Assembly (NCBI GenBank): GCA_964348785.1
Contig: CAYGDO010000001.1
Span: 21,724 to 85,723 of the forward strand
Length of the DNA: 64,000 nt
Reading direction: 5' to 3'
Origin: an uncultured Candidatus Saccharibacteria bacterium
GTDB taxonomy: Bacteria > Patescibacteriota > Minisyncoccia > Phycocordibacterales > 2-02-FULL-43-11
How positions within the stretch are numbered: position 1 is the first letter of the stretch; the number at the start of each line of letters is the position of its first letter. The translations under genes and the position numbers were made by a program. Shown here piece by piece: positions 13,160 to 37,361 of the stretch. The notes under the pieces are model-generated. The model was given only the letters and a program-made list of their open reading frames with translations, was not told the DNA's origin and ran no database searches.

Positions 13160-13188
13160 ACCCGCCTCGCTCACCTCGACCCCCTCAC

Positions 13189-13286: not shown

Positions 13287-13315
13287 TTGACACTATCAAA
13301 TTGACGTGGTAATTT
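13287..13315 (+). promoter_or_regulatory. second copy of cassette promoter TTGACA-N17-TAATTT
   Basis: catcattgacactatcaaattgacgtggtaattta. Confidence 0.55.
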
Positions 13316-13376
13316 ATTTTCACTTGGCCAATGGTGGTCAAGAGTACACACAAGAACCAAATCATCAGGCAAAACC

Positions 13377-14114: not shown

Positions 14115-14146
14115 GTGATTCTCTCCAGTCCGAATCGACCTCTCGC

Positions 14147-14180
14147 GCGCAGCGTCCTCCCTGGACACTGCGCTTTTTTT
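14147..14180 (+). terminator. rho-independent terminator, copy 2
   Basis: gcgcagcgtcctccctggacactgcgcttttttt. Confidence 0.7.
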
Positions 14181-14212
14181 ATTCAAAATTTTTTATGCTC
14201 TTAACTAAAAAA

Positions 14213-17214: not shown

Positions 17215-17676
17215 TTACAACATTCCCAATTTAGTAAAAAGTTCAACAGAAGGCGGACTAAGTTTAAAATTTTTCAAATCCGATATTTCCACCCACTCAT
17301 ATTCATCAAATTCTTCAATATCAAGAACAACAGATATTTCCTTTGCAGGTTTATCCAAAACAACTTTATAAGTGAAAAATTTCATTTTGGCGATAACTCG
17401 CTCACCCGTATCACGTAAAGTTTTTTCTGCTTCGCCGATCATAGAATCATCTACCAATTCTGCTTCACAAAAAGAAACGTCAATACCTGTTTCCTCTTTC
17501 ACTTCTCTTATTAAAGCTTCGATTCTTGTTTCTCCACTTTCTACACCACCACCGGGAATTTTCCAACAATCGCCATAAACCACACCAGCATTGGCCTTAG
17601 TATTTCTGGCCAAAAACAATTTTCCATCACTTGAATATATATGTCCTGCTACAATTTCACGTTCTATAGTTCTCAT
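17215..17676 (-). CDS. NUDIX hydrolase
   Basis: 153 aa; Nudix box GGGVESGETRIEALIREVKEETG. Confidence 0.7.
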   Translation of the reverse strand: MRTIEREIVAGHIYSSDGKLFLARNTKANAGVVYGDCWKIPGGGVESGETRIEALIREVKEETGIDVSFCEAELVDDSMIGEAEKTLRDTGERVIAKMKFFTYKVVLDKPAKEISVVLDIEEFDEYEWVEISDLKNFKLSPPSVELFTKLGML

Positions 17677-18005
17677 AAAAGTCTAAACTTAATCATCTTT
17701 ACAACACTGTCCTCATTTACTTTTTCTCCGTAATATTTTTTGTAAGTTTCAAACATCCTTTCTTTACTTTCAAATTTTTCATGCCCGTCAAAATCATTGA
17801 CCTCAATTTCCCCGAGTCTTTTTTCTCTAACAGAAAGAACAACAGCTTCCCCAAATTTCTTTCCACTTTCTTTTTCCACCAAAGATAACTTATCACCAAC
17901 TTTTAAATCCTTATCGTCAAAAAGACGCCAAGTAGAATCTTTCTCTCCTGAAAGAATCAAAGAGACAAGTTTGCTGACAAATTTTAAAGTTTTATTATTT
18001 TTCAT
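17673..18005 (-). CDS. ASCH-domain protein
   Basis: 110 aa; ILSGEKDSTWR motif and beta-barrel-like pattern. Confidence 0.5.
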   Translation of the reverse strand: MKNNKTLKFVSKLVSLILSGEKDSTWRLFDDKDLKVGDKLSLVEKESGKKFGEAVVLSVREKRLGEIEVNDFDGHEKFESKERMFETYKKYYGEKVNEDSVVKMIKFRLL

Positions 18006-18548
18006 TTATTCTAAAATATAATCCCACCCTGGTTTCCAAGATTTTGTTTTTCTCCAATCTTCAGCAAAAGCTTGTTCCCAAGTCTTACCCTTCAAAATAA
18101 CATCAAGAGCAAGTTGAGGGGCTTTGTGAGCAACTATCGCAACACTTTTTCCATCATAATTATTTTTTAAATCTTTTAAAAAATTTAGAATTCTCATCCT
18201 AACATCCTCATAACTTTCTCCATTTGGCATAGGATTAAAAATTGATTTTTCTTGAAGAGGTTCAACAATGTCTGATAACTTTCCATTATAATCCCCATAA
18301 TTACATTCTCGTAATCTTTTATCTTGAACAATTGGCACAATTCCACCAAAAGTTAACTCCGCCGAATCAACCGCCCTTTTCAAATCAGAGGTAAAAACAA
18401 CATCAAATTTCTTATCTATTTGAGATAATAAATCTTTTGACTGTTTAATACCAAGTGGAGATAATTCAGCATCGTTCCAACCTGATGAAATTCCATTTTC
18501 ATTATCTATTGTCGTGCCGTGGACAAAATAAGTAATTTTTATTGACAT
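18006..18548 (-). CDS. histidine phosphatase superfamily protein (phosphoglycerate mutase-like)
   Basis: 180 aa; ITYFVHGTTIDN (RHG-like catalytic His), later AIVAHKAPQ. Confidence 0.65.
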   Translation of the reverse strand: MSIKITYFVHGTTIDNENGISSGWNDAELSPLGIKQSKDLLSQIDKKFDVVFTSDLKRAVDSAELTFGGIVPIVQDKRLRECNYGDYNGKLSDIVEPLQEKSIFNPMPNGESYEDVRMRILNFLKDLKNNYDGKSVAIVAHKAPQLALDVILKGKTWEQAFAEDWRKTKSWKPGWDYILE

Positions 18549-18643
18549 CTAGTGATTTTACCAGACAAAAGACTTTGAATAAATTAGAAACTTTTTTTGA
18601 CTTTAATAAACAAATTCGTTAATTTGTGATAAGGAGAAAACGC

Positions 18644-18916
18644 ATGAGCACGACGATAAAAAACCGACCTGTCGTTGGACAAGTTGTCCGATGGATTGAA
18701 CCGGGTGAGTACCCAAGAAACCCAGAATACATCACCAAAAAAAAGGCGGATTACCCAGGCGAACTGAGAATTCACTCAATTGAGAATCAGCCATCACGTG
18801 GGAAAGGATTCTTTTTCGTCACAGTATCTCACAACGGCTCGCCCATTATGAGCGCGGTAGACACGGGACGCCCTGCAATTTTTGATCCCTCTTGGTTCCA
18901 CTGGGATGGCGAGTAA
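18644..18916 (+). CDS. hypothetical small protein (moderately GC-rich)
   Basis: AGGAG 7 nt upstream of ATG at 18644; 90 aa. Confidence 0.4.
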   Translation: MSTTIKNRPVVGQVVRWIEPGEYPRNPEYITKKKADYPGELRIHSIENQPSRGKGFFFVTVSHNGSPIMSAVDTGRPAIFDPSWFHWDGE

Positions 18917-19147
18917 GTTCCTTACCATACATCTCCCAAACTGCCGATTCCCGGCGGTTTTTTTATTTACCCGCCAAACTTTATTACCGAACAATATTTA
19001 ATTTCTAATGTAATGCGCCTTACTTCTTTTATTAAAAAATCTCAAACATCTCAATTTCCATAAAGTTAGGCGGGTGAATCCCTAAAAAATTATAAAAACA
19101 ACGTACTTTAAATCCTTAAAGTACGTTGTCGACACTTCGCCATTCAA

Positions 19148-20548
19148 TCAACCAGAAAGAAGGTATCCGATGGCATCTGATGCTGTGTATGAGCCACGCT
19201 CGTGCGTCATTAACTGGCGCAAATACGCATGATCTTTCCCGAGCGTGACAATTGCAGATTCTCCTGGACTGCCGAGACCTACGGTCGCGGTCAACCCATT
19301 ACAAAGGCACCTAGCACCAATTGTATCTTCGGCTCGCCCACCCAGTCGTCCGTAATCACTAACAGGTTGTGCCCTGCAACGAAAACCGATTTCACCATCA
19401 GGTCTCTGATATGCGACTGACAGCGCGCACAAGTCACACACGCGAGGTCGATCTTCGTACACCTTTGCATCTGACAACGTGCCAGGTAGTTGCACTACCT
19501 GGAATGGAAACCCTGTAGGAGACGCGTTCGGATCGCTTAGGACCTCGAGTTCCCCCCGAAAACCCAGACGCCGAATTTCATTGCGATACTGTGACAAAAT
19601 GCCAGAATTATCGGAAAGCGCAAACATAGAGCCCACCTGAATTCCTGTTGCACCAAGATCTTGGGCTTCTCGTAGTCCAGCCGGAGAAGCAAGACTACCC
19701 CCAATCCAGAACGGGCGACCTAAATCGCGAATCTTTTGAAGGTTCGGCACATCACGTACGCCATAGACTGGTTCGCCTCGCGGATTCAATACCAACTGAC
19801 CACGAGGTGATGCATTATGTCCACCAGCACATTTTTTCTCAACGACAAATCCATAAATACCATCTCCAAGGCGTGCGTCCATTGCCATCGCAAGCACGTG
19901 AGATGAGACAATTGGCAAAAATAGCGGACGTGTTAGTCTCGGAAGCTTGTCTCCGAAATACCTCCTCGGATCAAAGTGAACCTCAATGTAACCAAGTGAA
20001 CTTCCTTCAACTACAACGCGGTACACCGCCGGCTCTCCTTTTGCGTATGCATCAAGTACTCCCGGCACCATCATGGGAATACCTGCTCCCATCGTCACGA
20101 CATGAACACCCGCAAGCATCGCGCCGTAAAGCTGGGCAAGAAGCATACACTGCATTTTCTCGAGCAAATTGATGCTGATTAATGCGCTGTGATCTTCCTT
20201 TGCCAACCAAACAATGGCGAATGTTGAAGCGACAGTAAGCTCAACCAGATCTGGACTTGGATTGAGATGAAATGCCGGCACAGGCTTAAACTGCTCTCCC
20301 TGTGCAATTCCACCATCAACGTAATACTTGCTGACAATCCTATCCGCAACACCTGCAAAAGGAAAATGCGCAAGTGCTCGCCTGAAGTGGCCACCAACAT
20401 CTCCCAGCTGAAGAATGCGCGACACCACAAACCAAGACGCAACACCGCTAACTGTAGACAAAACATCTGGAGATTTTGCACCTTCTTGTGCCAAATCCTT
20501 ATTAGAAACAGCGACACCCATACCGCCGATGATTATTCTTTTGTTCAT
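19148..20548 (-). CDS. nitronate monooxygenase/FabK-like NAD(P)H-dependent flavin oxidoreductase family protein (GC-rich)
   Basis: 466 aa; IIIGGMGVAVS N-terminus and GATGIQVGSMF TIM-barrel FMN motifs; AAAGGTG RBS. Confidence 0.5.
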   Translation of the reverse strand: MNKRIIIGGMGVAVSNKDLAQEGAKSPDVLSTVSGVASWFVVSRILQLGDVGGHFRRALAHFPFAGVADRIVSKYYVDGGIAQGEQFKPVPAFHLNPSPDLVELTVASTFAIVWLAKEDHSALISINLLEKMQCMLLAQLYGAMLAGVHVVTMGAGIPMMVPGVLDAYAKGEPAVYRVVVEGSSLGYIEVHFDPRRYFGDKLPRLTRPLFLPIVSSHVLAMAMDARLGDGIYGFVVEKKCAGGHNASPRGQLVLNPRGEPVYGVRDVPNLQKIRDLGRPFWIGGSLASPAGLREAQDLGATGIQVGSMFALSDNSGILSQYRNEIRRLGFRGELEVLSDPNASPTGFPFQVVQLPGTLSDAKVYEDRPRVCDLCALSVAYQRPDGEIGFRCRAQPVSDYGRLGGRAEDTIGARCLCNGLTATVGLGSPGESAIVTLGKDHAYLRQLMTHERGSYTASDAIGYLLSG

Positions 20549-20640
20549 AGCTCACACCTTTCTATCAATGAACTGTTAGAGTTGTTTAAAGTCTCACTCG
20601 CTAAATAATAACAGTTCTAAAAAAAATAATCCGAAGAAAT

Positions 20641-20949
20641 TTATAAAACTGAAGTGTAAACCAACAAAAACAACATAAGAGCTACAAAACAAAAAAATGT
20701 AACTAAAGTTTTAACAAAAAAAGATAGGGCTTCTTGCCTTTTATTTTCTAACAGCAATCTAACCGGTTCAAAAAAGAAAAGTATAGCCATGACAGCCACA
20801 GAAAGGACAAGCAGGCTAAGCATTGTCATAGGAATAATTATAGTATCTTCTGTTCCCATAATGCCTTTAATTATTGTACTCATTACAAGAACCCCTCCGA
20901 CTATATAACCTCCAGCCATCAATGCATTTATAAATGGATTTTTTAACAT
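20641..20949 (-). CDS. small membrane protein
   Basis: 102 aa, three hydrophobic segments. Confidence 0.4.
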   Translation of the reverse strand: MLKNPFINALMAGGYIVGGVLVMSTIIKGIMGTEDTIIIPMTMLSLLVLSVAVMAILFFFEPVRLLLENKRQEALSFFVKTLVTFFCFVALMLFLLVYTSVL

Positions 20950-21027
20950 TTTATTTTTTTATTATATAACAGAAACTGCTAAATAAGATGAGTTGTTACT
21001 TTTCTACCTCACAAAAATAAAATGATA

Positions 21028-21055
21028 TTTTTACAAAGGTCGAACCTTTGTAAAA
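21028..21055. repeat. perfect palindromic repeat TTTTACAAAGG-TCGAA-CCTTTGTAAAA (copy 1)
   Basis: 11-bp inverted arms, 5-nt loop; further copies at 24421-24448, half copy 23164-23183, inverted variant 45971-45990. Confidence 0.8.
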
Positions 21056-21108
21056 CAGTTGTTCCTACTTTACTTGACTAAACCACTACACTTTGATAAA
21101 GTGACGGC

Positions 21109-21423
21109 ATGAATTGGGAAAACAAAGAAAAAATAAAACTAATAAACGCCATTCTGGCCATCGAAACCGTTGATGAAGCCAGACGTTTTTTGCGTGACTT
21201 AATGACTGAATCCGAGATACAAGAATTTTCTAAACGACTTCAAACGGCCGAGTTGTTATCCAATAACATTCCCTACTCAACAATTGAAGAAAAGACCGGC
21301 TTAAGTTCAACAACTATCGCCCGAGTATCAAAATGGCTAAACGGCCGACAGGGTGGTTATAAAAATATAATAAATAAATTACATCATCACAGCTCTGCTC
21401 AAACAAGGAGAGGGTTGTCTTGA
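21109..21423 (+). CDS. YerC/YecD-family TrpR-like DNA-binding protein
   Basis: 104 aa; ...ARRFLRDLMTESEIQEFSKRLQ...TIARVSKWLNG pattern typical of Trp-repressor-like YerC family. Confidence 0.6.
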   Translation: MNWENKEKIKLINAILAIETVDEARRFLRDLMTESEIQEFSKRLQTAELLSNNIPYSTIEEKTGLSSTTIARVSKWLNGRQGGYKNIINKLHHHSSAQTRRGLS

Positions 21424-21546
21424 TATATGTAAAACAAGATTAATGAAGCTAACCCCCTCCTTGTTTGGAGGGGGTTTCGTTTGAGTTGTTGCAGACAACT
21501 CTCAAAAGAACTCGCCTTGAGTAACTAGCAGTTCATTAAAATCCAA

Positions 21547-22245
21547 TTGACTACCTACATGAATCCGCTCACTAAGATAGAGAAACTCCGGTCAGTAAGA
21601 CGAGTTGTGCATCCGAAGGAAATCTTTGGGATTACAAAAATCGACTTCCTGTTTTTTGTCTGCCCCAAAATGAAGAGTCCCGGCATCGTGGTAGAGAACG
21701 GCAAGTTGACCGCTCGATATGTTAACGGGCTTTCCAGCTTCACAAATGCCAGAATCCAAAAGGTAAATGCTTTTTTGGATGAATTGCGAGCGATTGAAAT
21801 AGATGGGTACGCCTTTTCGATCAAAGCGATTTTTGCCTCCGCCGACTCCTTCATTCTCTTCGAAACGCCAGTCGAACCTCCGAGCATGACTCCGGCCATT
21901 CCAGGCATTGAAGTCGTCAGCAATCTAGAGATATACAAAAGAAACCGCCCCACTAATCTAGAAACTCTTCTTGAGGAACGTCCATGGGAAAAAATACCGT
22001 CCAGACACCTTGAAGAACAAAGGCTGAAGAAACTTCTACCTGCTGATGCGACACGAGAGATGAGGCAACGCTTTGTCGAGAGGACATTTGCGGGGTTTGC
22101 TCTAGACGGCGTAGTCATCCGACATGATGCCTTTTCTTCCACTGCTCGCAACCCAGTAATTCTTGGAGTGGAGTCACCGGGGGTTGCCGACCTCCAAAAT
22201 GCGCAACTTGGAGAACATCCAATCCCGGTAGTTCAGTTGGTGTAA
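21547..22245 (+). CDS. hypothetical protein (moderately GC-rich); track start is TTG, alternative ATG at 21559
   Basis: 232 aa ORF followed by terminator. Confidence 0.45.
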   Translation: MTTYMNPLTKIEKLRSVRRVVHPKEIFGITKIDFLFFVCPKMKSPGIVVENGKLTARYVNGLSSFTNARIQKVNAFLDELRAIEIDGYAFSIKAIFASADSFILFETPVEPPSMTPAIPGIEVVSNLEIYKRNRPTNLETLLEERPWEKIPSRHLEEQRLKKLLPADATREMRQRFVERTFAGFALDGVVIRHDAFSSTARNPVILGVESPGVADLQNAQLGEHPIPVVQLV

Positions 22246-22251
22246 GCAGGT

Positions 22252-22290
22252 GGCGGGGCAGAGTTTTCTCTCCCCCGCCCCTATTTTTTT
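22252..22290 (+). terminator. rho-independent terminator
   Basis: GGCGGGGcagagttttctctCCCCCGCC + ctattttttt. Confidence 0.65.
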
Positions 22291-22314
22291 ACTTTTTAAT
22301 TCATCATAAATATT

Positions 22315-23157
22315 ATGTCTAAAAAAACAGAAACGATTATCAACCAGATAGAAAAATTTTCTTCAATACCTATCGAAAACAGGCCCTTGTTTTCAAGTTA
22401 CATTGACCAATCGCTTGAAGAAAACACACCGGTAACTTTTTATAACTGGGAATGTCCACCGCGCCGTATAAGCTATACCAAAAAAGGTGCGCCATTCATT
22501 AATTACGATATAGATCTTAAGGAGATATTTTTGAATAAAAAAATGGACAGGTATACTGAAATACCTAGGGTTGTGGCACAACAAAATAAGGAAATATCAA
22601 TAATCTCTTTTTTGAAAAGTCTCAACTTCCCATTTCGTTTTATAAAAATCGTAGCTGACACTAACGCCTATTATTTAACACCGGAATCCCTTGCCATCAC
22701 AGGTGAAAAAAAGATTTCAAAAAAATTTTCCGAGTTTAAAGACCTAATCCTCTCGACCAGCATTAATTACCCGATCAAAACGGAGGTCTTGCTATTCACA
22801 AAAATACTCCAGCCCTTTTTGGATACATACAAAAAAACATACAGTATCTGTTACAAAATTCTAAAAGAAAATCCCGAGATACTTTTACCCTTAACCACCC
22901 TTAACGAACAATTGGTCCGTACTAAAAAACACGTTGGTATAACCGACAAAAATTGGACTCTGGATTTTAGCATGAAAACAATTGCCACATATGCCGCAGA
23001 GGGTATAGTTTTCGATCGTCTTAGTAAAACAAGTGCTTTTTCAAACTGCGTCTGGCTTAACAATCACGAGGTAGACCGAAGGACTATAAAGATTACTAAC
23101 TGTTACAGAAAGAAAAAGAGAATCGGTAATTTACCGATGGTATTTTTTGATGGTTAG
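22315..23157 (+). CDS. hypothetical protein
   Basis: 280 aa AT-rich ORF. Confidence 0.5.
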   Translation: MSKKTETIINQIEKFSSIPIENRPLFSSYIDQSLEENTPVTFYNWECPPRRISYTKKGAPFINYDIDLKEIFLNKKMDRYTEIPRVVAQQNKEISIISFLKSLNFPFRFIKIVADTNAYYLTPESLAITGEKKISKKFSEFKDLILSTSINYPIKTEVLLFTKILQPFLDTYKKTYSICYKILKENPEILLPLTTLNEQLVRTKKHVGITDKNWTLDFSMKTIATYAAEGIVFDRLSKTSAFSNCVWLNNHEVDRRTIKITNCYRKKKRIGNLPMVFFDG

Positions 23158-23163
23158 CAATAA

Positions 23164-23183
23164 TTTTACAAAGGTCGAACCTT
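23164..23183. repeat. half copy of the palindromic repeat
   Basis: ttttacaaaggtcgaacctt. Confidence 0.6.
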
Positions 23184-23210
23184 AAATCATAAATTAAGGC
23201 GCGGTTTTAC

Positions 23211-24338
23211 TTATTGATAATTCTCATGCCCAAAATCTTTTAAATCCTTTTTTGCTTTGTTTACAAATTTTCCAAAATTCTTACTTTTTTGTCTTTTCTG
23301 ACTAGCGCTCATATCATTATATTCTGCCTCTTTTTTTAAATTAACGTAATTTGTATATTTCTCTCCATCTATCTGTCCAGATTTAACTGCACTTATGACA
23401 ACGCAACCAGGTTCATGAGTATGAGTACAATCAATATATTTACACTTTTGCCCCAACGCAGTAATTTCTTCAAAAAAGATATCAACACCCTCTCCGGCAT
23501 CAACTATACCGACCTCGCGAATTCCAGGATTATCTATAACAATTCCACCATTATCTAAAAAATACATTTGTCTTCTAGTGGTGGTATGTTTCCCCCTATC
23601 TGAGTAAAAACCGACATCACTAGTTATTATCAATTCTTCACCAATTAGCTTATTAATAAGTGAGGACTTGCCAACACCCGACGAACCAAGAAAACAATAC
23701 GTTTTACCTTTCTCAACATAATTTTTTAATTTATTGAGTCCGTCACTACTAACTGTGCTCACCATAATAATATCAATATTAGGAAATCTATCTTTTAATT
23801 CACTCAGTTTGACCTCCCTCTCTTTATCAGACAAAAGATCTATTTTATTTAAAATAATGGTCCCTTTCACTTCACTGTCTTTCAAAATAGTAAGATATCT
23901 CTCAAAACGGTTCAGATTATAATCACGATCAACAGATTCAACAACAAAACCTACATCTATGTTTGAGGCGATAATTTGAACATCACCTTTTTCTCCATAT
24001 TTGTTTTTATCGCCAAATCTTCTTTTTATTATTGTTTGTCTAGGTAATATACTTTTAATAACTACCTGCTCATTATCCGTTTCAGAGATTAAAACCCAAT
24101 CTCCAACAGCTGGATAATCTTCCCTACTTGTAGCTTCAAACCTTCGTTTGCCTGTTATTTTAGCCAAAAATTCTCCATTTATATTTTTAACTTTATACGC
24201 TCCCTTGTGTTCAGCAATTACTCGGGCAGGAGAAAAATGACCAGAATCCGCTTCATTTACTTTTGATTCGAAAAATGGATTAAAGCCCAACTCATTCAAA
24301 TTGTTGATCTTTTTTGAAACCTCTCCCATGAATACCAT
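23211..24338 (-). CDS. rsgA: ribosome small-subunit-dependent GTPase A (circularly permuted GTPase)
   Basis: 375 aa; permuted order NKIDL (G4) before GSSGVGKSSLINKL (G1) and DNPG (G3); C-terminal CxHxxExGC zinc knuckle. Confidence 0.75.
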   Translation of the reverse strand: MVFMGEVSKKINNLNELGFNPFFESKVNEADSGHFSPARVIAEHKGAYKVKNINGEFLAKITGKRRFEATSREDYPAVGDWVLISETDNEQVVIKSILPRQTIIKRRFGDKNKYGEKGDVQIIASNIDVGFVVESVDRDYNLNRFERYLTILKDSEVKGTIILNKIDLLSDKEREVKLSELKDRFPNIDIIMVSTVSSDGLNKLKNYVEKGKTYCFLGSSGVGKSSLINKLIGEELIITSDVGFYSDRGKHTTTRRQMYFLDNGGIVIDNPGIREVGIVDAGEGVDIFFEEITALGQKCKYIDCTHTHEPGCVVISAVKSGQIDGEKYTNYVNLKKEAEYNDMSASQKRQKSKNFGKFVNKAKKDLKDFGHENYQ

Positions 24339-24420
24339 TGTAACCTGTCCCGGGCTCCAACCAAATGAGTGTCTTGAAATGTAGTTATTCTAAAATTAGT
24401 AAAAAATACAGCTAGAAGAA

Positions 24421-24448
24421 GTTTTACAAAGGTCGAACCTTTGTAAAA
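24421..24448. repeat. palindromic repeat copy 2 (overlaps last codons of 24424-24813 gene)
   Basis: gttttacaaaggtcgaacctttgtaaaaac. Confidence 0.8.
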
Positions 24449-24813
24449 ACTACTTTGAAAAAAAAATCTAACAGTTTTGAAATTAAATCTTTCTGATTAA
24501 AATAAATAATAAAATCAGAAGCTATATATTTTAATGAATTCGACACCTTGCCACCTTCTTCCTTTGAAATACAAAGTATGGGTATATTCATTGTGTTTGC
24601 CCAACCTAATTCAATCCCTTGCCCCGTTGAAGGAAAAGAGACTTCAGCAATAACTAAATCACAATCTTTTAAAATTTCTTTGGTATTCAAATCTTTTTGG
24701 CCTTCGTGTGGAAAAAAGAAAGTATGTGATTCATTCAAAACCGACTCTCTTAATGGTTTATAGAGTTCATTTTCAAAATCAAATTTTCCAGAATGCGAGA
24801 TATATACTTTCAT
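24424..24813 (-). CDS. nucleoside 2-deoxyribosyltransferase-like protein
   Basis: 129 aa; MKVYISHS..., GQGIELGWA motif of the NDT/Rcl-like fold. Confidence 0.45.
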   Translation of the reverse strand: MKVYISHSGKFDFENELYKPLRESVLNESHTFFFPHEGQKDLNTKEILKDCDLVIAEVSFPSTGQGIELGWANTMNIPILCISKEEGGKVSNSLKYIASDFIIYFNQKDLISKLLDFFFKVVFTKVRPL

Positions 24814-24865
24814 ATGTGTATTATTTAATACCTAATACAAAATCAAAAACATTTTCAGCCACACT

Positions 24866-26347
24866 CTAAGATAATTTCCGAACAATTCCCTTATCAGCAT
24901 CAACTTCTATTATATCGCCATCTTTCAAAACTTTAGTAGCAATTTTAGTGCCAATAATACAAGTTTTATTTAATTCTCGACTGACGATCGCTGCGTGGCA
25001 AGTAATACCACCTTCATCAGTCACAATTGCACCTGACCTTTTCATAAGCGGAACAAATTCTGGCCTTGTCATACCAGTAACCAATATATCACCGTCTTTA
25101 AAATGTCCACCGAGTTCTGCATCAAGAATAATTCGTGCGATACCACGCACCTTACCCTTACAAGCAATCTGTCCTTTTATGATGTTTTCAACAGCCGGCT
25201 GTTCCAATTTAATATGATGCTCATTAATTTCTTTTTTTATTTCAACAAAATTATCATAATTAATTTTTATATCACCGTTAAACAACATATATATTATGTA
25301 ACCATCCGCCCTTTTTTCAATTTCTTTTTTAATAGATTTTATAAACTCAACACCTTTTGTAAGTTCCACAGTTGGCAAGACAAATCCAATATATTTTGGA
25401 TCAATACTTGCCTCTTTAAATATCCTTTCGGCTATACGCCAATTTACAGTTAAAACTTTAGCGAAAAAGTTTTTACGACGATCACGCACACGCATTACAG
25501 TCTGACAATAATCAGCAATGACTTTTTCTTCATCTAATAATTCTTTATACCACTTATTATATTCTTCAAGATTTTTTTTCTCATTAAAAAGAATCTCTTG
25601 CCTTTTATTTTCTGCATCAACTGTGTTTATGTCTCCGTATTTACTCATTAAACGTTTCCGAACTTCTGGCAACAATTGCACATCCCTGTAAGTTGCATAA
25701 AAGAATTGGCAATCTTCAGCTATCTCGGAAATCGTTTTACCTTGCGCAAGTAATGACAACCCAAAATATTCTTGCTCTCCGTCAAAAGATCTAAATATAG
25801 GCACCGTGGCTTTTTCCCATAATTTATCTAAATTTTCTTTTGTGATTGGATACTTTTTAGAAGAAAGAACGTTTGCGCACAATTCTTTATCAAAATAAAG
25901 CGAAAAATATAAAGATGAGTTAGAAATGTGAATTAAGTCAAAAGCTTTTTGTATCAATGGGTAAAGCACCTCTATGTTTTCATTCTTTATACGTTCATAT
26001 GTATATTCTTTATATATTTCATCAACCTGTCTTTCATTTTTGAGAAAATTATCTTCAAGATTTTTTGTAAAAAAACGATCATCCAAATAACGATTAAAAC
26101 CCTCTATTGAGTCATTAACAATTGGGTTCGTAGGTAAATATACCGTCAAGCTTTCTCCGTCATTTATATTTAACGCGGAATAATTAAAATGTTTCGTATA
26201 CGGTGTAAGTTTAAAATATTTCTCAGTATTAAATCCTGAACTAAAATAAAAAAGCCCGCAATTATTCATGGGCCATATTTTACCGGTACCCACATCCCCT
26301 AAAAAACCTTCTAAAATCTGTTGTTCTGTATTTCTTGAAATCATCAA
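24866..26347 (-). CDS. PEP-utilising-enzyme mobile (phosphohistidine swivel) domain protein with novel N-terminal domain (paralogue G)
   Basis: 493 aa; C-terminus [46 protein letters not shown] matches PEP-utilizers mobile domain with catalytic His. Confidence 0.7.
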
Positions 26348-26402
26348 TAAATTATACCAATATTAAAAAAGCTTGGTATGAAGTTGAGACTTATTTCAAA
26401 GC

Positions 26403-26945
26403 CTAAAAGTTCATCTTATACCAGTCCAAACCATAAGTATCCTGAATAAGGATTCTCTCGCCTTTCGCCCAAGTAGGATTTTTCCCTAATCCCAATAAAT
26501 CTATTGCTTCTTTTATATGTTCCTCACTGATACCTTCAATTTCTAAATATGCAGGCATCTTTGGATATTGGTCTATATCAAACTGCCAATCTTTATAAGA
26601 AAAAGATGTCCTATCTTTTTCTTGATGCGCATATTTCTCAAGTCCCAACTCTTCAAACAAATCCCCCAATTTTTCAGGTTCTTGAATATTAAAATTAATC
26701 TCTTTGTGTTTACGAACCACGCCCAATATATCAGATTTTGCCTTCCACGTTACTTCATGTTTACCTTCTGAATTAGACCGAATTCTCAAAAACCAAGGGT
26801 CTTCTCCTTCTTTGACTCCTTTTATTCGAAACCAATCAACAACCAGTCTTGTTTCTTGGATTTTCTTTGCACCAAGGGAATTTAATGCATTCTTTATGTT
26901 ATTCGCATCAATATCTAAAACTTTTGTTTCTATCTCATGTGCCAT
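26403..26945 (-). CDS. CYTH-domain protein (CyaB/thiamine-triphosphatase-like)
   Basis: 180 aa; N-terminal EIETKVL (ExExK) signature. Confidence 0.55.
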   Translation of the reverse strand: MAHEIETKVLDIDANNIKNALNSLGAKKIQETRLVVDWFRIKGVKEGEDPWFLRIRSNSEGKHEVTWKAKSDILGVVRKHKEINFNIQEPEKLGDLFEELGLEKYAHQEKDRTSFSYKDWQFDIDQYPKMPAYLEIEGISEEHIKEAIDLLGLGKNPTWAKGERILIQDTYGLDWYKMNF

Positions 26946-26969
26946 GTGGAATATTGTACTACAATCTAA

Positions 26970-27527
26970 CTATAAATTACTTACTGTTTTTTGATACAAT
27001 TCATTCAAATCTTTATCCTCAAATTTAATTTGTTCGATAAATTTACGAGCGCCCTTAGACATTCGTCTATACATAAAGATTATTTTATCTCTAGTTTGTT
27101 CTTCGCTATGTGTCTTTCTATACCAAGGAACAGAACCTTCAAAATAAGAAAGGCTGTCAGAATCAGTAAGAATTTGTAAATCATTATCATTACCTCCGAC
27201 TTCGTGATTTTTAATCAAGTATTCTACCTTCTTAATATCATCAGAAGGAAAATTAAACTTTGACATCAAACTTGCTACCATACGAGCAGATTTTTCTGCA
27301 TGAACTTGTTTATATTTTTCATAACTTTCATAATTTTCGCGTCTTTCTCTATCCGGGAAACTTCGTTCATAATCGTGAGCAAGAATCGCTATTTGCAAAG
27401 GGATATCAGCATCTGGCTTTTGTTTTAAAACCCACTTCCATGCGAGTTGAGAATGTGCGTTCTCATCAAATTCAGATTTTTTTAACTGATTTTCTATTTC
27501 TTTTTTAATTAAAACAAAATTTTCCAT
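26970..27527 (-). CDS. HD-domain protein
   Basis: 185 aa; ILAHDYERSF motif. Confidence 0.45.
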   Translation of the reverse strand: MENFVLIKKEIENQLKKSEFDENAHSQLAWKWVLKQKPDADIPLQIAILAHDYERSFPDRERRENYESYEKYKQVHAEKSARMVASLMSKFNFPSDDIKKVEYLIKNHEVGGNDNDLQILTDSDSLSYFEGSVPWYRKTHSEEQTRDKIIFMYRRMSKGARKFIEQIKFEDKDLNELYQKTVSNL

Positions 27528-27702
27528 AAATTAATTAGCGAGATAAAGCCTAAAAACATGGCACATTCACTCTACACCACAAGAGTACTCCCAAATTTCT
27601 AACTCTTAAATCTCATAAGAAATTTTGGTCGCTGAGCTCAGTATTCCCTCACTCACGTTCGGTTGCTGAACGCTTGGTATGAAGTGGAAACCTATTTCGA
27701 TT

Positions 27703-28074
27703 CTAAATCGGAAACTTTTTAGCATCATAATACTCTCTAAGCGAGCTAAACTTTCCATTTCTGTAAGTAAAAATGCCAACTTCTTTCATCTTTATCCTTA
27801 TTTGTCTGACAACATCAGTAAACTCTGCCTGCCATTCTGCAATAACAGTTTCCTTATCAATCCAAATATTCTGTAAATTAAATTTTATATCCGATTGCCC
27901 CTTAACAACTTTTTCTTGCCAATATTTTTTTATAGCTTGTTTCCCAATATTAATCGGCTCATGCGGATCATCATAAGTGGCATCCTCAGTAAATATTGTG
28001 GTTATTAAATCTGAATCGCGGTCCACCCAAGCTTTACCATAAACATCTAAAAGTTTTTTTATCTGAATTTCCAT
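27703..28074 (-). CDS. SnoaL/NTF2-like fold protein
   Basis: 123 aa; LLDVYGKAWVDRDSDLITTIFTEDATYDDP pattern. Confidence 0.5.
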   Translation of the reverse strand: MEIQIKKLLDVYGKAWVDRDSDLITTIFTEDATYDDPHEPINIGKQAIKKYWQEKVVKGQSDIKFNLQNIWIDKETVIAEWQAEFTDVVRQIRIKMKEVGIFTYRNGKFSSLREYYDAKKFPI

Positions 28075-28088
28075 CCATTAATTATAGC

Positions 28089-28109
28089 TTACAAACTGGG
28101 GGACTTGGA
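28089..28109 (-). repeat. 21-nt direct copy of tRNA-Gln 3' end (TTACAAACTGGGGGACTTGGA), about 180 bp downstream of the tRNA
   Basis: identical to 28271-28291. Confidence 0.8.
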
Positions 28110-28277
28110 ACGTGATTACACTTCTCGACTTCGACTCAAAGTTCGCCGTCTCTCACTTTGGTCTAGTCACCAGCTCGTCCGTTTCTTTTACTAAAGAAAC
28201 ATGACTCCGCTGTTCGAGTCCAAGTCGTAAGCAAAGCAGTTTACTTACTTCCCCACAGTTTTTCACTGCGTTACAAA

Positions 28278-28348
28278 CTGGGGGACTTGGACTCGAACCA
28301 AGATACTAGGCTTCAAAGGCCCATGTCCTACCATTAGACGATCCCCCA
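28278..28348 (-). tRNA. tRNA-Gln (anticodon TTG)
   Basis: Reverse strand folds as cloverleaf: acceptor TGGGGGA/TCCCCCA, D arm GTCT..GGAC, anticodon stem TGGGC/GCCTA with loop CTTTGAA, T arm CTTGG-TTCGAGT-CCAAG, discriminator G; CCA not encoded. Confidence 0.8.
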
Positions 28349-28577
28349 ATATTTAAAACTCAATCCTATACATTCAATCTTCACATTCGCCCTTCTGGGC
28401 TCAGTACTCCTTCGTTCTCACTCGGTCGCTGGGCTCAGTGTTTCCTCACACCACAAGGGCACTTCCAATTTCATAGTCGCTTCACTCCTTGAAATTTAGG
28501 TCGCTCTCGCTCGGTCATAAAATACCTTTTTTTGGTTAAAATTTCAACCCGATTTCTTATATTTGATATTTAATTTT

Positions 28578-29618: not shown

Positions 29619-29769
29619 AAAAAGATTATAACATAGGATAAATTATCAATTTCCCACTCTATTTTATTTGGCAAAATAGGAGCAATAACCAATTTTCTAA
29701 GACCTAGCAGACTAACATCAATAATTAAATTCTTCAATTTAAGAAATAAAAAAGGATTGAATAAACAAA

Positions 29770-29925
29770 CTTTCAATCCCTGCCTTTGTCCGCAGTAGGA
29801 CCACCGGGCAAATGATATGCCCAACCGGAAGTTATGGGGTTCCCCCAAGCGTCAGTAGGACGTCCATCGGTGGAGCTCTTACGACTGCCACCTTTGCGTC
29901 TCGGTTTCCGAGGGTGGTTTTTCAT
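29770..29925 (+). ncRNA. candidate structured small RNA (unclassified) with intrinsic terminator
   Basis: AT-rich promoter-like region 29650-29760 then GC-rich segment with nested stems (CCACCG...CGGTGG, GGGCA...TGCCC) ending CCACC-tttgcgt-CTCGG-tttc-CGAGG-GTGG-TTTTT. Confidence 0.3.
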
Positions 29926-30145
29926 TCCAAATAAATTTTATCAAATATTTAAAAATATGAAAATAGAAGGGGTCGACCAAAATTACAAACTGGTCGACCC
30001 AGACACATTGCCCCTGCCTGTTTTGGGCGAACGCGTCTTAAATGTGGGAGAGTGACTTTGCCCTTAGTCGTAGATGTGACTTTGCCTTTAGCCACTCTGA
30101 AGATGATTTCATCCCACACAACTCAACTAAACCTATAATACGTCT

Positions 30146-30195
30146 TTAAAATATAAAAAGAAAGTCCCGAGGCCTGCGCGCACCTCGGGACCAAT
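30146..30195 (-). terminator. rho-independent terminator on minus strand (GTCCCGAGG-N10-CCTCGGGAC + T-run)
   Basis: perfect 9-bp stem followed on minus strand by TTTCTTTTTATATTTT. Confidence 0.55.
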
Positions 30196-30399
30196 CAGGA
30201 TGGAACAAGTTCAGCGTCAATGCAAAGACGCCGGGATGAGTGAGCCTTGGATGCTCTAGAGGAGTCTCATCTCTCCTTTTCGGAGGAAGGGCAGATGCCC
30301 GACCAAACGTCGTCTTCGACAAACCTTCCTCCTAGAAACCAGCAACCTCAAAACAACCCATATAAATCATAAACCTAGTAAAATAAAAGTAAAGGGGCG

Positions 30400-30435
30400 G
30401 TCGCATTGCGAACGACCGCCCCCGAACTGCAGACC
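30400..30435 (-). terminator. rho-independent terminator on minus strand (GGGGCGGTCG-loop-CGACCGCCCC + TTTACTTTTATTTT)
   Basis: perfect 10-bp GC stem, T-rich tail on minus strand. Confidence 0.55.
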
Positions 30436-30639
30436 AACCGATCCCCACTTTTCAGCGTGCCAAGAAGTCACGACAAGGGATCGGCTCTGACAGTCATCCT
30501 CCAAGCTGTCCCGTTAAAGACGCCAAGAAGAAAAGACTCCAGAAAAGAGCTGGAAAGTTCGAGCGCAAATTACGGCGAAGAACCGGATAGCTCAAACTGC
30601 TCTCTAAATGAATATGATGAACCTGATTTTAAAAAAGTA

Positions 30640-30675
30640 AAGCACCGCCCCGATTTTATCGGGGCGGTGCTTACA
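30640..30675 (-). terminator. terminator of the 544-aa surface-protein gene
   Basis: GCACCGCCCCGAT-aaa-ATCGGGGCGGTGC followed on minus strand by TTTACTTTTTT. Confidence 0.65.
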
Positions 30676-30681
30676 TGACTG

Positions 30682-32456: not shown

Positions 32457-33587
32457 TCACCACCCGAGACGAAAGAAGCGTGAGGGCTCGAGTGCTCTCC
32501 CCACAACCACACCACGGTCGTAGATCGGGACTGTCCCGATATTGACCGGGTACTTGCCCGGCCAAATGGGATAGTCATAGACAGGAGCCCACGGACCCCG
32601 AGCGTCCGTCGCTGAGTACAATCGGGCCTGCTGGCTCCCGGTCGCTTGGAAGTCCATGAAGACTTGCCCCGCCCGAGAAATTTCCAACGTGAACGAAATC
32701 GGTGGCGAATAGCCCACCGGCAGGTCCAATCGGAGTTCCGCGAGGAGCTTTCCGGTAATGGCGCCCCAAACCCGATACCAGAAAACGTACTTGTTACAGG
32801 ACTGAAAGTCCCGTTGAATCTGGTAAAGATCACCAGAATACCTGGCCTCCTTGGCGGTGTAGAAACCGAGGGAATACAACTCATTCACACCCTGATAGTC
32901 AGGACCGGCCCGGATTGACTTGTCGTCACTCGTGCCCTTCCGACCATCGGGTCCGTATTGCACTCCTTGATTGGCGAAGCCGTAATCACCCAACCCGTAA
33001 TTCCAGAAGCTGTCGGTCCAGGGGTTTACTCCCCGAGAACCGTACTCGACTCGCTCGAGATTAACCGGCTCCGGCGATTGACGAATGGCGAGAAGTGCCA
33101 CCACTCGTGTACCCTGTTGAATGCACTCTTCGGATCGCAACTCCTGATTTCTCCAGAATCGAACGTTGCTTCCAGTGGCATCAACGAAGTCGTGCCACGC
33201 CAGTCCAGCGACCGGTGTAAAATCGGTAGGGGTATTCTGAACCGGGCTGGCCCCGCGTCCAGTCTGCAACCAACGCATGGCGTTCAAATTCCATGCATCC
33301 ACCGAGCATTCGGATGCCGGCGAAACGGCAATAGTGATGTCAGCGATGACTCCCGCGGCAAGGTAATTATTGGCAGGAGGGATTCCTTGCTTGGGATACC
33401 AGTCCCAGCTCTTCCAATCCTCCGCCCACGGATCCGTATCCGTGTAGAAGTGGATGGGCGCCGGTGTCCCGCACCCGTCACACCCGATAGTGGCCGGTTG
33501 GGTCACCGCGCCACCAATGGTGGCTTGGCCGAAGAGGTTGAGAACGAAACCGAAGACGAATCCGAGGGTAACGATACTGGTTTTCAT
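32457..33587 (-). CDS. GC-rich secreted hypothetical protein (Trp/Tyr/Gly-rich)
   Basis: 376 aa with N-terminal signal peptide; strongly GC-biased codons unlike neighbours. Confidence 0.5.
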   Translation of the reverse strand: MKTSIVTLGFVFGFVLNLFGQATIGGAVTQPATIGCDGCGTPAPIHFYTDTDPWAEDWKSWDWYPKQGIPPANNYLAAGVIADITIAVSPASECSVDAWNLNAMRWLQTGRGASPVQNTPTDFTPVAGLAWHDFVDATGSNVRFWRNQELRSEECIQQGTRVVALLAIRQSPEPVNLERVEYGSRGVNPWTDSFWNYGLGDYGFANQGVQYGPDGRKGTSDDKSIRAGPDYQGVNELYSLGFYTAKEARYSGDLYQIQRDFQSCNKYVFWYRVWGAITGKLLAELRLDLPVGYSPPISFTLEISRAGQVFMDFQATGSQQARLYSATDARGPWAPVYDYPIWPGKYPVNIGTVPIYDRGVVVGRALEPSRFFRLGW

Positions 33588-35634: not shown

Positions 35635-37014
35635 TTACGCGTACTGGTCCGGTTTCCCTGGAACAGGATCTACGGACCGATACACTTCGAGTCTCAACCT
35701 ATCAACCCTGAAAATCGGGGCGAGCAGACGAAAGAGTCGTTCGTTTCGAACCGCATGTGATTTCGAACTAGCAGAGGTAAATAGATACTTAGACATATCT
35801 CTGCCAGAAAGAATTGAGGCGACGCCACTCTCCGCCGTAAGCAAGCTGGTCAAGACAATGTAGAAATGCACATCAAGCACCAACCTCTTTCGGGCCGGCA
35901 ACTGACAAGTGCAGTCCGCGTCCAAACCTGCCATTTCAACGAAAGAAGTGATGACATTGTCCACCGCTTCAGAGAGTGGGAATGACAGATTCCCCTCAAA
36001 GAACAATCGCTGGCTGTCCGCTGACAGAAAGCGATGAGTCTCTCCCTTCTCGTCAATCAAGCGATAGAAACGGCTAGGATCAGAGTTCGAGATTTCCTTG
36101 AGCACCCGCCTCAATCGTTCTTCGCCCAATGACCGAAACAAGAACGCCGAAGCCAACTCCACCTGCGGAAACATCACTTTGGTTGCGGCGACGTGGAAAG
36201 CAAACGGGCTCGCCGCCCGCAGGGCAATCCCCGGCAAACCATGATTCAAACTCTCCGGTAAGGTCCTGCTGGACCAGCGTGCAGAACCCGGCCAAAGGTT
36301 CTCATCGTCGGAAATGCGCACCCCAACACAATGGCACACACTGTGACCTTCGTTGTACGCACGTTCCATGAACTCGTGCATGAGAACCTTGCGCCCAGTA
36401 CGCGCCACCTCTTCAGGATTGGCACCGTGCCAAGAGCCAACGTGAGTCGTCCGAATACAACTTGGCGGGAGACCACTTATGTCTTTGTAGCCAGCATCGA
36501 CTACGACAAACAGTTTTTCCTCCTTCCTACGTGAGTCATCACCGTAAGGCCAGATGCAGAGATGATCGGCCCTGTCAGTCCAGTTCCTGCCGTGGAGCAC
36601 CCAAGTACTGATGATATTCCTAGCTAGACTATCCAAACGGCGATCAGTGTATTCCCTCCTCGTTCCCAACTTCCAAATGGCTGGCGAGACATTGGCGTAC
36701 CGACCAACTGAAAGGACCCAGATATCTCCCTCCTGCCTCGCGTCTTTCATCGAGCACGAGCAACTTTCAGGAGCATCCTCAAGAAACAAGCCCTCTTTCC
36801 GACCCAGAACGAGAGCAAGAGGCCTGGTCTCGCCAGTCACTTTAAAAGTCACCTGGCCTGTCCACTCACCGTCACCTGAAGATGAAAAAGAAAGTCCGAC
36901 CTGATCGGTGGAAAAGCCTCCAGCGATTTTTCTGAGGATGACCTCCGCGACCCCGCCCGAGTTAGCCGAGATAACCGACACCAACTCACTACCAGGTTTA
37001 ATTGTCGTTGTCAT
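35635..37014 (-). CDS. GC-rich hypothetical protein (about 459 aa from ATG at 37014)
   Basis: Track ORF extends to 37167 but upstream extension is AT-rich and contains a terminator hairpin (GGGCCC-tcaaacg-GGGGCC+TTTTCTT at about 37090-37120); no family recognised. Confidence 0.5.
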   Translation of the reverse strand: MTTTIKPGSELVSVISANSGGVAEVILRKIAGGFSTDQVGLSFSSSGDGEWTGQVTFKVTGETRPLALVLGRKEGLFLEDAPESCSCSMKDARQEGDIWVLSVGRYANVSPAIWKLGTRREYTDRRLDSLARNIISTWVLHGRNWTDRADHLCIWPYGDDSRRKEEKLFVVVDAGYKDISGLPPSCIRTTHVGSWHGANPEEVARTGRKVLMHEFMERAYNEGHSVCHCVGVRISDDENLWPGSARWSSRTLPESLNHGLPGIALRAASPFAFHVAATKVMFPQVELASAFLFRSLGEERLRRVLKEISNSDPSRFYRLIDEKGETHRFLSADSQRLFFEGNLSFPLSEAVDNVITSFVEMAGLDADCTCQLPARKRLVLDVHFYIVLTSLLTAESGVASILSGRDMSKYLFTSASSKSHAVRNERLFRLLAPIFRVDRLRLEVYRSVDPVPGKPDQYA

Positions 37015-37361
37015 TGCTTGCCTTGTTGTTTTGCCTGTTTTCGTCAAAGAACTTATCGCCCGTCTCCACACGGAGTAGCGATTAAGAAAAGGCCCCCGTT
37101 TGAGGGCCCGTTTCTTCAATTGATTTTTGCAATAAGAGAAACCGACCCTCAAACTTGTGGGGACCAAAAGCTAAAATAAAAGTTTGCAGTTCGGAATTTC
37201 ATAGTTATATATAAATCATACATAATCGTTTTTTTATGTCAAATGTAAAAAATCCACACCCCAAGGTCACACCTCCTATAAAAAACACTGTCAAACTAAG
37301 AGTGATTTTAAGATCTATATATGTAAAAAGTACAAAGTTCGACCTTGTAAGTAATTTGGTT

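Follow-up and report, generated by a model that had tools for sequence, protein, structure and literature searches.

tRNA genes are classic landing sites of mobile DNA, and the choice of site is normally credited to the integrase protein. Here we describe, from a 64,000-nt stretch of an uncultured bacterial genome (contig CAYGDO010000001.1, positions 21,724 to 85,723; hereafter the window), a family of gene-less sequences that lie directly behind tRNA genes, the first of which, 3' of tRNA-Gln, we call X, and the further members X2, X3 and X4. The members have a conserved fold, a 3' end matched to the adjoining tRNA and an antisense version of that match, and they are polymorphic among relatives. 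One copy of X, on comparison of related contigs, has moved to, or has been precisely lost from, a site that is not a tRNA gene. Our interpretation, held with slightly more confidence than doubt, is that these are small, non-coding, non-autonomous mobile elements of a Paceibacteria (Taylorbacteria-like) lineage that insert directly 3' of tRNA genes. Their tRNA-matched ends suggest an undescribed way of targeting insertions to such genes, and no description of elements of this kind was found in the literature searched. The window is part of ENA contig k141_1278861 (222,561 bp), and about 80 kb of the source genome were seen; all sequences come from metagenome assemblies, and few sequences entered the comparison.

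The tRNA-Gln 3' end is repeated in direct and inverted orientation

A complete tRNA-Gln(UUG) gene without an encoded CCA occupies 28278-28348 on the minus strand (ARAGORN; Rfam RF00005, 61.9 bits, model positions 1-71). The initial annotation, made from the letters of the window, had reported this gene together with a 21-nt direct repeat and a 15-nt inverted repeat of its 3' part, and ARAGORN, Rfam and self-BLAST recover all three in the same places. The direct repeat, TTACAAACTGGGGGACTTGGA, is exact (28089-28109 and 28271-28291; self-BLAST E 1.1e-4 in the 64 kb window) and consists, on the tRNA strand, of the last 14 nt of the tRNA (TCCAAGTCCCCCAG, to the discriminator base G73) and 7 nt of trailer, TTTGTAA. 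Both copies read on the minus strand: the first (28271-28291) joins the 14 nt of the tRNA gene (28278-28291) to the first 7 nt of X (28271-28277), and the second (28089-28109) joins the 3' end of X (28096-28109, to the base equivalent to G73) to 7 nt of right flank (28089-28095). These 7 extra nucleotides are repeated in the window copy only, the right flanks of the other X copies being different.

The 15-nt inverted repeat (GTTCGAGTCCAAGTC / GACTTGGACTCGAAC; 28212-28226 against 28284-28298) is likewise exact, but its real extent is longer than had been reported, since the inverted copy is split and a 22-nt hairpin separates GACTTGGACTCGAAC from a preceding segment, CTGTGGGG (28251-28258). Read 3' from tRNA-Gln on the tRNA strand, the order is TTTGTAACGCAGTGAAAAA; CTGTGGGG; the 22-nt hairpin; GACTTGGACTCGAAC; about 100 nt of hairpins; and ACGT-TCCAAGTCCCCCAG-TTTGTAA, and the ATG of a SnoaL-like gene follows 14 nt beyond the end of the distal repeat. 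When the 182-nt interval was shuffled 20,000 times, not one shuffle held a 14-nt direct or a 15-nt antisense match to the tRNA tail. The region 28089-28338 is present at 100% identity in two independent Logan assemblies (ERR3094302 and ERR3094292). At 28316-28338, the Logan contigs of two runs end or start inside tRNA-Gln; such breaks point to a branch of the assembly graph at this gene and so to the same tRNA-Gln in more than one context in those samples.

Element X is sharply bounded and variably present

Relatives were compared at their dnaX loci, with DnaX proteins 93-97% identical. X (28096-28277, minus strand; core type A) is a non-coding sequence of 182 nt, TTTGTAACGCAG...CACGTTCCAAGTCCCCCAG, with sharp boundaries in five copies that score 202-226 bits against its covariance model. 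These are the window copy, copies at the same tRNA-Gln in relatives L024, L028 and L033, and a second copy in L024 (6849-7030). In their alignment, homology begins at CAG|TTTGTAAC and stops at CCCCCAG|, after which all five right flanks are different. The copies are 90-98% identical to one another; for dnaX, third-codon identity between the window and L024 is 62%. Comparison of orthologous tRNA-Gln loci, which the initial annotation had proposed, placed X in L024, L028 and L033 and not in L025, L027 or L030, where tRNA-Gln is the same, dnaX is identical or nearly so, and other sequence follows the tRNA at once. X is thus small, non-coding, and present or absent among strains. No open reading frame (ORF) was found in it, also when UGA was read as Gly, and coding potential was rejected.

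The second L024 copy lies away from any tRNA, between ...CATACCAAGCGTTCAG and TAACCGAACG / TAACCGAACGTG, and both flanks are contiguous in the window at 27677-27660. There they form an unoccupied site on the minus strand, CCAAGCGTTCAG|CAACCG (27666-27677), the L024 copy falling at the junction between 27666 and 27665. The two contigs represent a filled and an empty site for a precise gain or loss of 182 nt. The insertion site ends in CCAAG..CAG; only CAG is common to the two junctions of the second copy, and there is no target-site duplication of fixed length. Because this non-tRNA copy keeps a tRNA-Gln-type 3' end, the distal repeat belongs to the element. Every left junction comes directly after the ...CAG or ...GCA of a tRNA-like end, with no relation among the right flanks. 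Precise excision of X from the window, if it takes place, would join tRNA-Gln to GCTATAATTAATGG, and a circle or tandem junction, if formed, would read ...AATCACGTTCCAAGTCCCCCAG|TTTGTAACGCAG. No empty site for the window's own insertion was found, since the SnoaL-like gene downstream has no homologue above 67% identity.

The relationships among the copies differ from those of their hosts. Although the dnaX DNA of L024 is identical to that of L028, the X copies of the two are 91.8% identical with unlike right flanks, and the L028 copy is nearest to that of L033, though the dnaX of L033 is 85% identical; the history of X therefore does not follow that of the host. In two of the five copies the 3' copy is decaying (L024a, TCTCCCAT; L033, CCAAGCCCACCCCAG).

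Several other accounts of the arrangement were tried and rejected. An invertible switch between the inverted copies was dismissed on finding the same internal orientation in five out of five copies, and a replication-strand bias because the G-rich strand bears X but not X4, orientation being that of the tRNA. An integron cassette array downstream was also rejected, there being no intergenic att-like repeats beyond 27666-27677 and a partial copy at 26368-26397.

Further members of the family carry the ends of other tRNAs

Two covariance models, R1 and R2, were used for core type A. Searched with the model of X, the window yielded no additional copy. A diverged homologue, X2, does lie on the same contig, 5.7 kb past the window end and directly after tRNA-Tyr (L037 3986-4163), with scores of 64 bits against R1 (E ~1e-16) and 133 bits against R2. 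Its 3' end is TCCAGCCTGGCGCA, that of its tRNA-Tyr is TCCAGCCCGGCGCA, and its antisense segments are GUGGCAGG and GAUGGACUCGAAC. The 3' copy departs from the local tRNA by a single C to U difference, which is matched by a compensating A in the antisense strand of X2, so that it is the pairing inside the element that is kept.

A scan for further cases, covering 30 tRNAs of the sequences in the analysis, yielded X3 and X4. X4, a feature that the initial annotation had not noted, lies in the window on the plus strand (50828-50960, 133 nt; core type B; fold z = -4.26; no Rfam family), immediately after tRNA-Leu(CAA) (50744-50827, plus strand), which has its last 20 nt (50808-50827) in common with the end of X4. 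It comprises a hairpin (50840-50862), an anti-T segment matching tRNA-Leu (GGGAGTTGAA, 50864-50873), a long central hairpin, a small hairpin with a UGUAA loop and the 3' end (TTCAACTCCCTCCCGCGGCA, 50941-50960), which equals the tRNA-Leu 3' end. X3 follows a different tRNA-Tyr in L039 and L040, and has a 20-nt copy, TTCAAATCCTTCCCTGCGCA, with antisense segments GCAGGGAA and GGATTTGAA. X3 and X4 have a second core in common (87% identity over 117 nt), the differences lying chiefly at the tRNA-matched positions; third-codon identity of ClpB between their host genomes is 60%.

The family as a whole thus comprises gene-less sequences of 131-184 nt with two core types, each found with two different tRNAs. 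Each of the four members has as its 3' end a copy of the adjoining tRNA's final 14-20 nt, to the discriminator base, and the antisense segment co-varies with this copy; in a match matrix with shuffle tests, direct and antisense matches were to the cognate tRNA only. Fold z-scores of the four range from -4.3 to -5.3. No such element was found at tRNA-Trp, and some relatives have the same tRNA genes without elements.

The two tRNA-Tyr genes, that of the source contig (L037 3898-3981) and that of L039 (5351-5436), are about 75% identical, the adjacent ClpB proteins being 94% identical, and they are followed by elements of unlike core type. From these sequences, the whole unit of tRNA-Tyr and element seems to have been replaced between L037 and L039. 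In L039 another inverted T-arm copy, 14 nt long, is found about 217 nt downstream of tRNA-Tyr. L039 has a 10/12 promoter match upstream of tRNA-Tyr and, as read from its sequence, a long hairpin with a T-run after X3.

Predicted fold and covariation

On the tRNA strand X is predicted to fold at -65.5 kcal/mol (z = -4.35), against -54.0 kcal/mol for the opposite strand. The pairing of GACTTGG with CCAAGTC foreseen in the initial annotation is found both in the minimum-energy fold and in the consensus fold of the five copies, and in it the inverted fragment pairs with the distal copy. In the single strand the antisense segments are paired to the 3' end of the same element, which therefore forms a multi-hairpin body closed by a helix whose sequence is that of the 3' part of the tRNA gene. 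All parts lie on the minus strand. The anti-acceptor segment CTGTGGGG (28251-28258) is complementary to CCCC(C)AG at the 3' end and forms helix 2 of the consensus. The anti-T segment GACTTGGACTCGAAC (28212-28226), invariant in five out of five copies, is the exact complement of three parts of tRNA-Gln, namely the T-loop, the 3' strand of the T-stem and 2 nt at the start of the acceptor 3' strand. Within X, the first 8 nt of the segment are paired to the 3' end of the element, and ACTCGAAC is without a partner. Between the two antisense segments stands hairpin H3 (GUAAGUAAA-CUGC-UUUGCUUAC, 28227-28248), in which two consensus pairs (30/51 and 31/50) show fully compensatory changes, in the L028 and L033 copies. 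The central domain (28112-28211) contains hairpins at 28171-28212, 28126-28169 and 28112-28121, and has the motifs UGAGCG.CGGCGAA and GAGAAGUGUAAUCAC in common with X2.

The five-copy consensus has 61 pairs in eight helices, three of them pairs with double changes, and 98.7% of its cells are paired on the tRNA-sense strand compared with 93.1% on the other, the lower figure being due to G-U pairs. With X2 added, compensatory double changes are seen at 27 of the 61 pairs, and the paired share of cells is 97.5%; slid-partner controls gave at most 6 such pairs, and none of 500 shuffles attained the observed values. Loop motifs kept between X and X2 are GGACUCGAAC, UGAGCG.CGGCGAA and GAGAAGUGUAnUCAC. 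The closing helices of the family also covary, as is seen when X is compared with X2 and X3 with X4. In both core types a hairpin with a (U)GUAA(U) loop precedes the 3' end by 16-17 nt. X3 and X4 have the T-loop copy in paired form, and X and X2 lack it.

X has no terminal inverted repeats at its very ends: the inverted segment starts 19 nt inside the left end and is split by the hairpin. The hairpins near the two ends are unlike in sequence. X, X2 and X4 had no Rfam 15 match up to E = 10 apart from noise, and in the search for a tRNA-like element ARAGORN and Rfam detected true tRNAs only. A likeness by eye to the guanidine-III riboswitch was dropped, there being no pseudoknot partner and no Rfam hit. 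A decayed inverted or permuted tRNA or tmRNA was rejected, ARAGORN finding none and only 15+8 nt being tRNA-derived, as was the primer-binding site of a retroelement, the complementarity excluding CCA and being hairpin-split, with no reverse transcriptase found.

A serine recombinase gene abuts tRNA-Gln in relatives

The initial annotation had proposed looking for an integrase that targets tRNA-Gln, and a large serine recombinase gene does stand at this junction in close relatives without X. In L027 (3147-3824) and L030 (5209-5908) an ORF runs antisense into tRNA-Gln, so that its C-terminus, ...LGDLDSNQDTRLQRPMSYH, is encoded by the antisense strand of the tRNA. It aligns to the C-terminal part of a 579-aa large serine recombinase of L010 (3612-5362; E 1e-10), which itself abuts tRNA-Gln and has Resolvase, Recombinase and Zn_ribbon_recom domains; L009 is arranged likewise. 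In this lineage, then, recombination at the base that follows G73 of tRNA-Gln is proven.

The last ~20 codons of the recombinase (LGDLDSNQ...SYH) lie on the strand opposite the tRNA, with the junction directly after G73, and the gene is seen at tRNA-Gln both in the X-less close relatives and in distant Paceibacterota. X showed no similarity to the recombinase-proximal arms of L010, L027 and L030. The idea that X is a remnant of the recombinase 3' end was rejected, the frame that leads into the tRNA antisense strand giving ...SLRYKLGDLDSNQ, which is unlike the recombinase upstream of LGDLDSNQ.

Proposed mechanism

The design common to the four elements may be set out as a short leader; an antisense of the 3' part of the adjoining tRNA (3' strand of T-loop and T-stem, 3' strand of the acceptor), split by a hairpin; one to three more hairpins; and, as 3' end, a copy of the final 14-20 nt of the tRNA that reaches as far as the discriminator base. 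Insertion would take place at or right after that base, and since the element brings its own copy of the target, the target site would be regenerated. The form recognised would be the folded single strand (single-stranded DNA, possibly RNA), as for integron attC sites, the attP hairpin of CTX phage and the DNA guides of IS200/IS605. An antisense segment would have no role for a recombinase of double-stranded DNA, and a T-loop copy that is helical is not tRNA mimicry; for these reasons we favour a folded single strand that rebuilds the duplex of a tRNA end. The enzyme would act in trans, and may be the large serine recombinase of the same junction or an unseen HUH, tyrosine or other recombinase. 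Alternatively, the antisense segment could act as a guide that pairs with the target strand, as in IS200/IS605 guides and bridge RNAs (PMC11208160).

A bolder proposal, which we put forward tentatively and consider doubtful, is that the family is a new class of nucleic-acid-guided insertion elements, in which the antisense 'guide' would pair with a tRNA gene's 3' strand, as well as with the matching 3' end of the element, would direct insertion exactly behind the discriminator base, and would be reprogrammed for another tRNA by a swap of guide and terminal copy, the folded core staying the same. The elements would then be a MITE-sized (MITE, miniature inverted-repeat transposable element), protein-light counterpart of IS200/IS605 guides, bridge RNAs and attC, specialised on the tRNA genes of Patescibacteria.

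Evidence against mobility, and alternative explanations

A number of observations weigh against mobile elements. The copies without exception read in the direction of local transcription, as would also suit an RNA function. Copy number is low, with three family members in about 80 kb of the 222 kb contig and two X copies in L024, and a matching empty site is at hand for one insertion only. X has no match in IMG/VR (five patterns), INPHARED or PLSDB, and a phage or plasmid origin was rejected. It is absent at more than 20 tRNA-Gln loci of other Patescibacteria; 13 GTDB and 4 JGI loci with the same tRNA 3' end lack it. In 61 ORFs of the window no recombinase, integrase, transposase or reverse transcriptase domain was found (tyrosine and DEDD recombinases among those sought), and none of these, nor TnpA(Y1), appears in the annotated ~16 kb of contig flanks, which leaves the acting enzyme hypothetical; nor was a parent autonomous element for X found in window and flanks. 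How guide and 3' copy are re-matched to a new tRNA, with cores 87-97% identical, is unexplained. X2, a single diverged sequence, supplies most of the covariation, and the model that aligned it had itself been built on this structure; such a model-fitted alignment is biased toward that structure, yet the margin over controls is large. The presence or absence of X at tRNA-Gln rests on metagenome contigs that may be chimeric at a shared tRNA, and Logan contigs break there; the filled and empty pair of L024 and the long contigs are independent of this caveat.

A functional processing or termination structure was one of two explanations offered in the initial annotation, and in a broader form it is our principal alternative, unlikely in our estimate though to be taken seriously. 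The elements would be modules that function as RNA within the transcription unit of the tRNA, each a structured 3' trailer with a closing helix in which the 3' strand of the tRNA is used a second time, and they would spread by recombination rather than by dedicated transposition; they might act as a processing or punctuation signal for RNase P or RNase Z, as a stabiliser, or as a regulator pairing with the T-arm. Such modules would account for the constant orientation with the tRNA and the position inside its transcription unit, as judged from the promoter match and the hairpin with T-run in L039, for a 3' copy that ends exactly at the discriminator base in four out of four members, and for strong covariation with G-U pairs on the sense strand only and conserved loop motifs. 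The anti-T-loop of X and X2, moreover, has no partner except the tRNA itself, and tRNA-like processing signals have a precedent (PMC1920247). Yet close relatives dispense with the elements at the same tRNA genes, tRNA-Gln among them; tRNA-Trp and many other tRNA-Gln genes of Patescibacteria lack them; one copy adjoins no tRNA; and two of the five X copies show decay of their 3' copy. The fold is also not tRNA-like, the T-loop copy being helical or absent and neither ARAGORN nor the Rfam tRNA model recognising a mimic, while identity between genomes exceeds vertical expectation and relationships are incongruent with those of the hosts.

The other explanation first offered was the scar of an excised element. 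The premise behind it, that a direct repeat of a tRNA 3' end marks site-specific insertion at the tRNA-Gln 3' end, is well founded: such a repeat is the classical att signature (PMC9897764), serine-recombinase elements use the same junction in relatives, and the region beyond the tRNA is accessory and hypervariable. A plain scar of integration, or a cis-mobilizable remnant, in which an island lost its interior and left attL and attR about 160 bp apart with the inverted fragment incidental, is nonetheless improbable. The 182 nt between the repeats are an intact, sharply bounded element seen in five contexts, and random leftovers would not be expected to stay 90-98% identical across genomes with saturated silent sites, to keep a fold through 27 compensatory pair changes, or to comprise two conserved cores at four different tRNAs with co-varying antisense segments. 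X is, in addition, duplicated in a relative by precise insertion at a non-tRNA site, which is matched by an empty site in the window and carries a tRNA-Gln-type end; the distal repeat is consequently the element's own rather than a displaced host tRNA end, since it travels with that copy and co-varies in X2. X also bears no resemblance to the recombinase-proximal arms at this junction in L027, L030 and L010. Chance duplication or an assembly artefact, which metagenome contigs and the breaks of Logan contigs inside the tRNA might bring to mind, we regard as barely credible in view of an identical sequence in three assemblies, five diverged copies in unlike contexts, homologues at other tRNAs, and shuffling, where 0/20,000 attained the observed matches.

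Comparison with known systems

We return to mobile elements as the preferred interpretation. Islands, prophages and cis-mobilizable elements (defined in PMC5704250) that target tRNA genes resemble X in their position at the tRNA 3' end, the intact tRNA and the direct repeats of its 3' end; the X site is, moreover, polymorphic, lies beside a variable accessory region and is a junction used by a large serine recombinase in relatives. The X family differs in being gene-less and 131-184 nt long with an element-owned distal repeat, and in a core that has a conserved single-strand fold and an internal antisense co-varying with the tRNA, one core serving different tRNAs. By the tests used for integrative elements, X has no integrase or remnant of one inside or beside it, and its distal repeat is not a displaced host copy. 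X is like a MITE in size, in being non-coding and in being polymorphic, and unlike one in having no terminal inverted repeats or fixed duplication.

Architectural parallels are the attC sites of integrons (including those of ORF-less cassettes) and the folded single-stranded attP of CTX-type phages, where, as here, inverted segments about 100 nt apart rebuild a duplex target in a single strand, the structured middle is variable, architecture is kept more than sequence, and regeneration of the site allows arrays. X, however, has no GTTRRRY or RYYYAAC core boxes and no IntI, attI or dif-like site nearby, and at its junction CAG|TTTGTAAC the two ends are direct, not complementary, in that box, unlike the R''/R' of attC. 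The X family also differs from both attC and CTX attP in having a tRNA end as its target and 14-20 nt of identity with it.

IS200/IS605 elements and their derivatives (palindrome-associated elements and REPINs) likewise insert 3' of a specific one-sided sequence without clear duplication, and they have a right end that resembles the target, a guide pairing inside the element, a strand-specific fold, and small hairpin-rich derivatives. On this comparison specificity would be resettable by a change of guide, because recognition is by base pairing with an internal guide. The guide of the X family is 8 to at least 15 nt long and split by a hairpin, against 4-5 nt in IS200/IS605; a single guide region seems to serve both target and right end; the end hairpins are unlike; and there is no Y1 (HUH) transposase or TnpB in window or flanks. 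The bridge RNA of IS110/IS1111 elements (PMC11208160) offers a further likeness, a structured non-coding segment of about 180 nt that is complementary to the target and confers modular specificity. X differs in having no DEDD recombinase gene, no conservation on the right side of the target (five unlike flanks) and no evident two-loop bipartite guide. Finally, the t-elements of plant mitochondria, which are tRNA-like processing signals (PMC1920247), are also structured, partly built of tRNA, sited beside genes, and end at a tRNA-type 3' end; X, by contrast, is not a cloverleaf mimic, does not keep the T-loop as a loop, is dispensable and polymorphic, and has been duplicated away from tRNAs.

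Genomic surroundings

The nearest proteins to DnaX and ClpB are those of Paceibacteria/Taylorbacteria, and the G+C content of the window is about 34%. Along the minus strand dnaX is followed by a block of short GA-rich repeats and then by tRNA-Gln, X, SnoaL-like, DUF4202, CYTH and a PEP-utilizer paralogue, and the genes around X are well read in code 11. Between tRNA-Gln and DUF1697/DUF2585, the window (17200-28090) and L035 (11460-19620) contain 8-11 kb of small accessory genes that are wholly different, synteny being restored at DUF1697/DUF2585, 8-11 kb past tRNA-Gln. The tRNA-Gln-anchored region up to DUF1697/DUF2585 is a hypervariable island.

The GA-rich repeats are modules of about 47 nt, found in the window at 28383-28516 and 27560-27665 (minus strand) and also in L008, L024 and L031-L034. 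Each consists of ATGACCGAGCGAGAGCGAGGAAAyACTGAG, a 4-bp hairpin (GCCC-AGAA-GGGC or GGCC-AGCA-GGCC) and CGAATGT. They are sited between a putative -10 box and tRNA-Gln, and 3' of the SnoaL-like gene; their number and composition are different in each close relative, and the small hairpin covaries. One lies directly 3' of tRNA-Gln in the Kaiserbacteria genome L008, and one directly 3' of X in L033. They have no Rfam match and, within the window, are confined to the tRNA-Gln locus.

Other tRNA-Gln trailers have features of their own. Those of L007 (~230-330) and L031 (~2140-2180), both Taylorbacteria-like, have another motif in common, the hairpin CATACCyGCTGAGAGCrGTATTCAAGACA. L021, a JGI metagenome contig, carries a partial tRNA-Gln copy 45 nt downstream of the complete gene (~1640-1715, tRNA strand), extending from the anticodon arm to the T-loop, with 13 nt exact and flanking similarity.

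The PEP-utilizer mobile domain is encoded by seven paralogues, six in tandem (54441-63722 and 24866-26347). Short conserved remnants (in translation E-I/G-x-x-x-F-I-P-S) occur at 27666-27695 and 26368-26397, past the stops of the SnoaL-like and CYTH genes, and the secondary insertion site of X falls within one of them. In this genome of about 33% G+C, five stretches are rich in G+C (46-58%; 12542-14186, 19148-20548, 29619-30681, 32457-33587 and 35635-37167), and their long ORFs have no Pfam match. A non-coding gap of about 1 kb upstream of dnaX has no Rfam match at E <= 1.

Significance

In practical terms, these elements give rise to partial tRNA copies and graph branches, by which metagenome assemblies are broken or mis-joined at tRNA genes. 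For the biology of the family, the central point is that an element of 130-180 nt without any gene contains its target in direct and in antisense form, and that both forms change with its tRNA. If the elements are functional RNAs, they would make up a new bacterial class of tRNA-linked structured RNAs. If they are mobile, the choice of target would be written in the element's own nucleic acid, with a bearing on the mobile elements of the candidate phyla radiation and possibly on programmable insertion.

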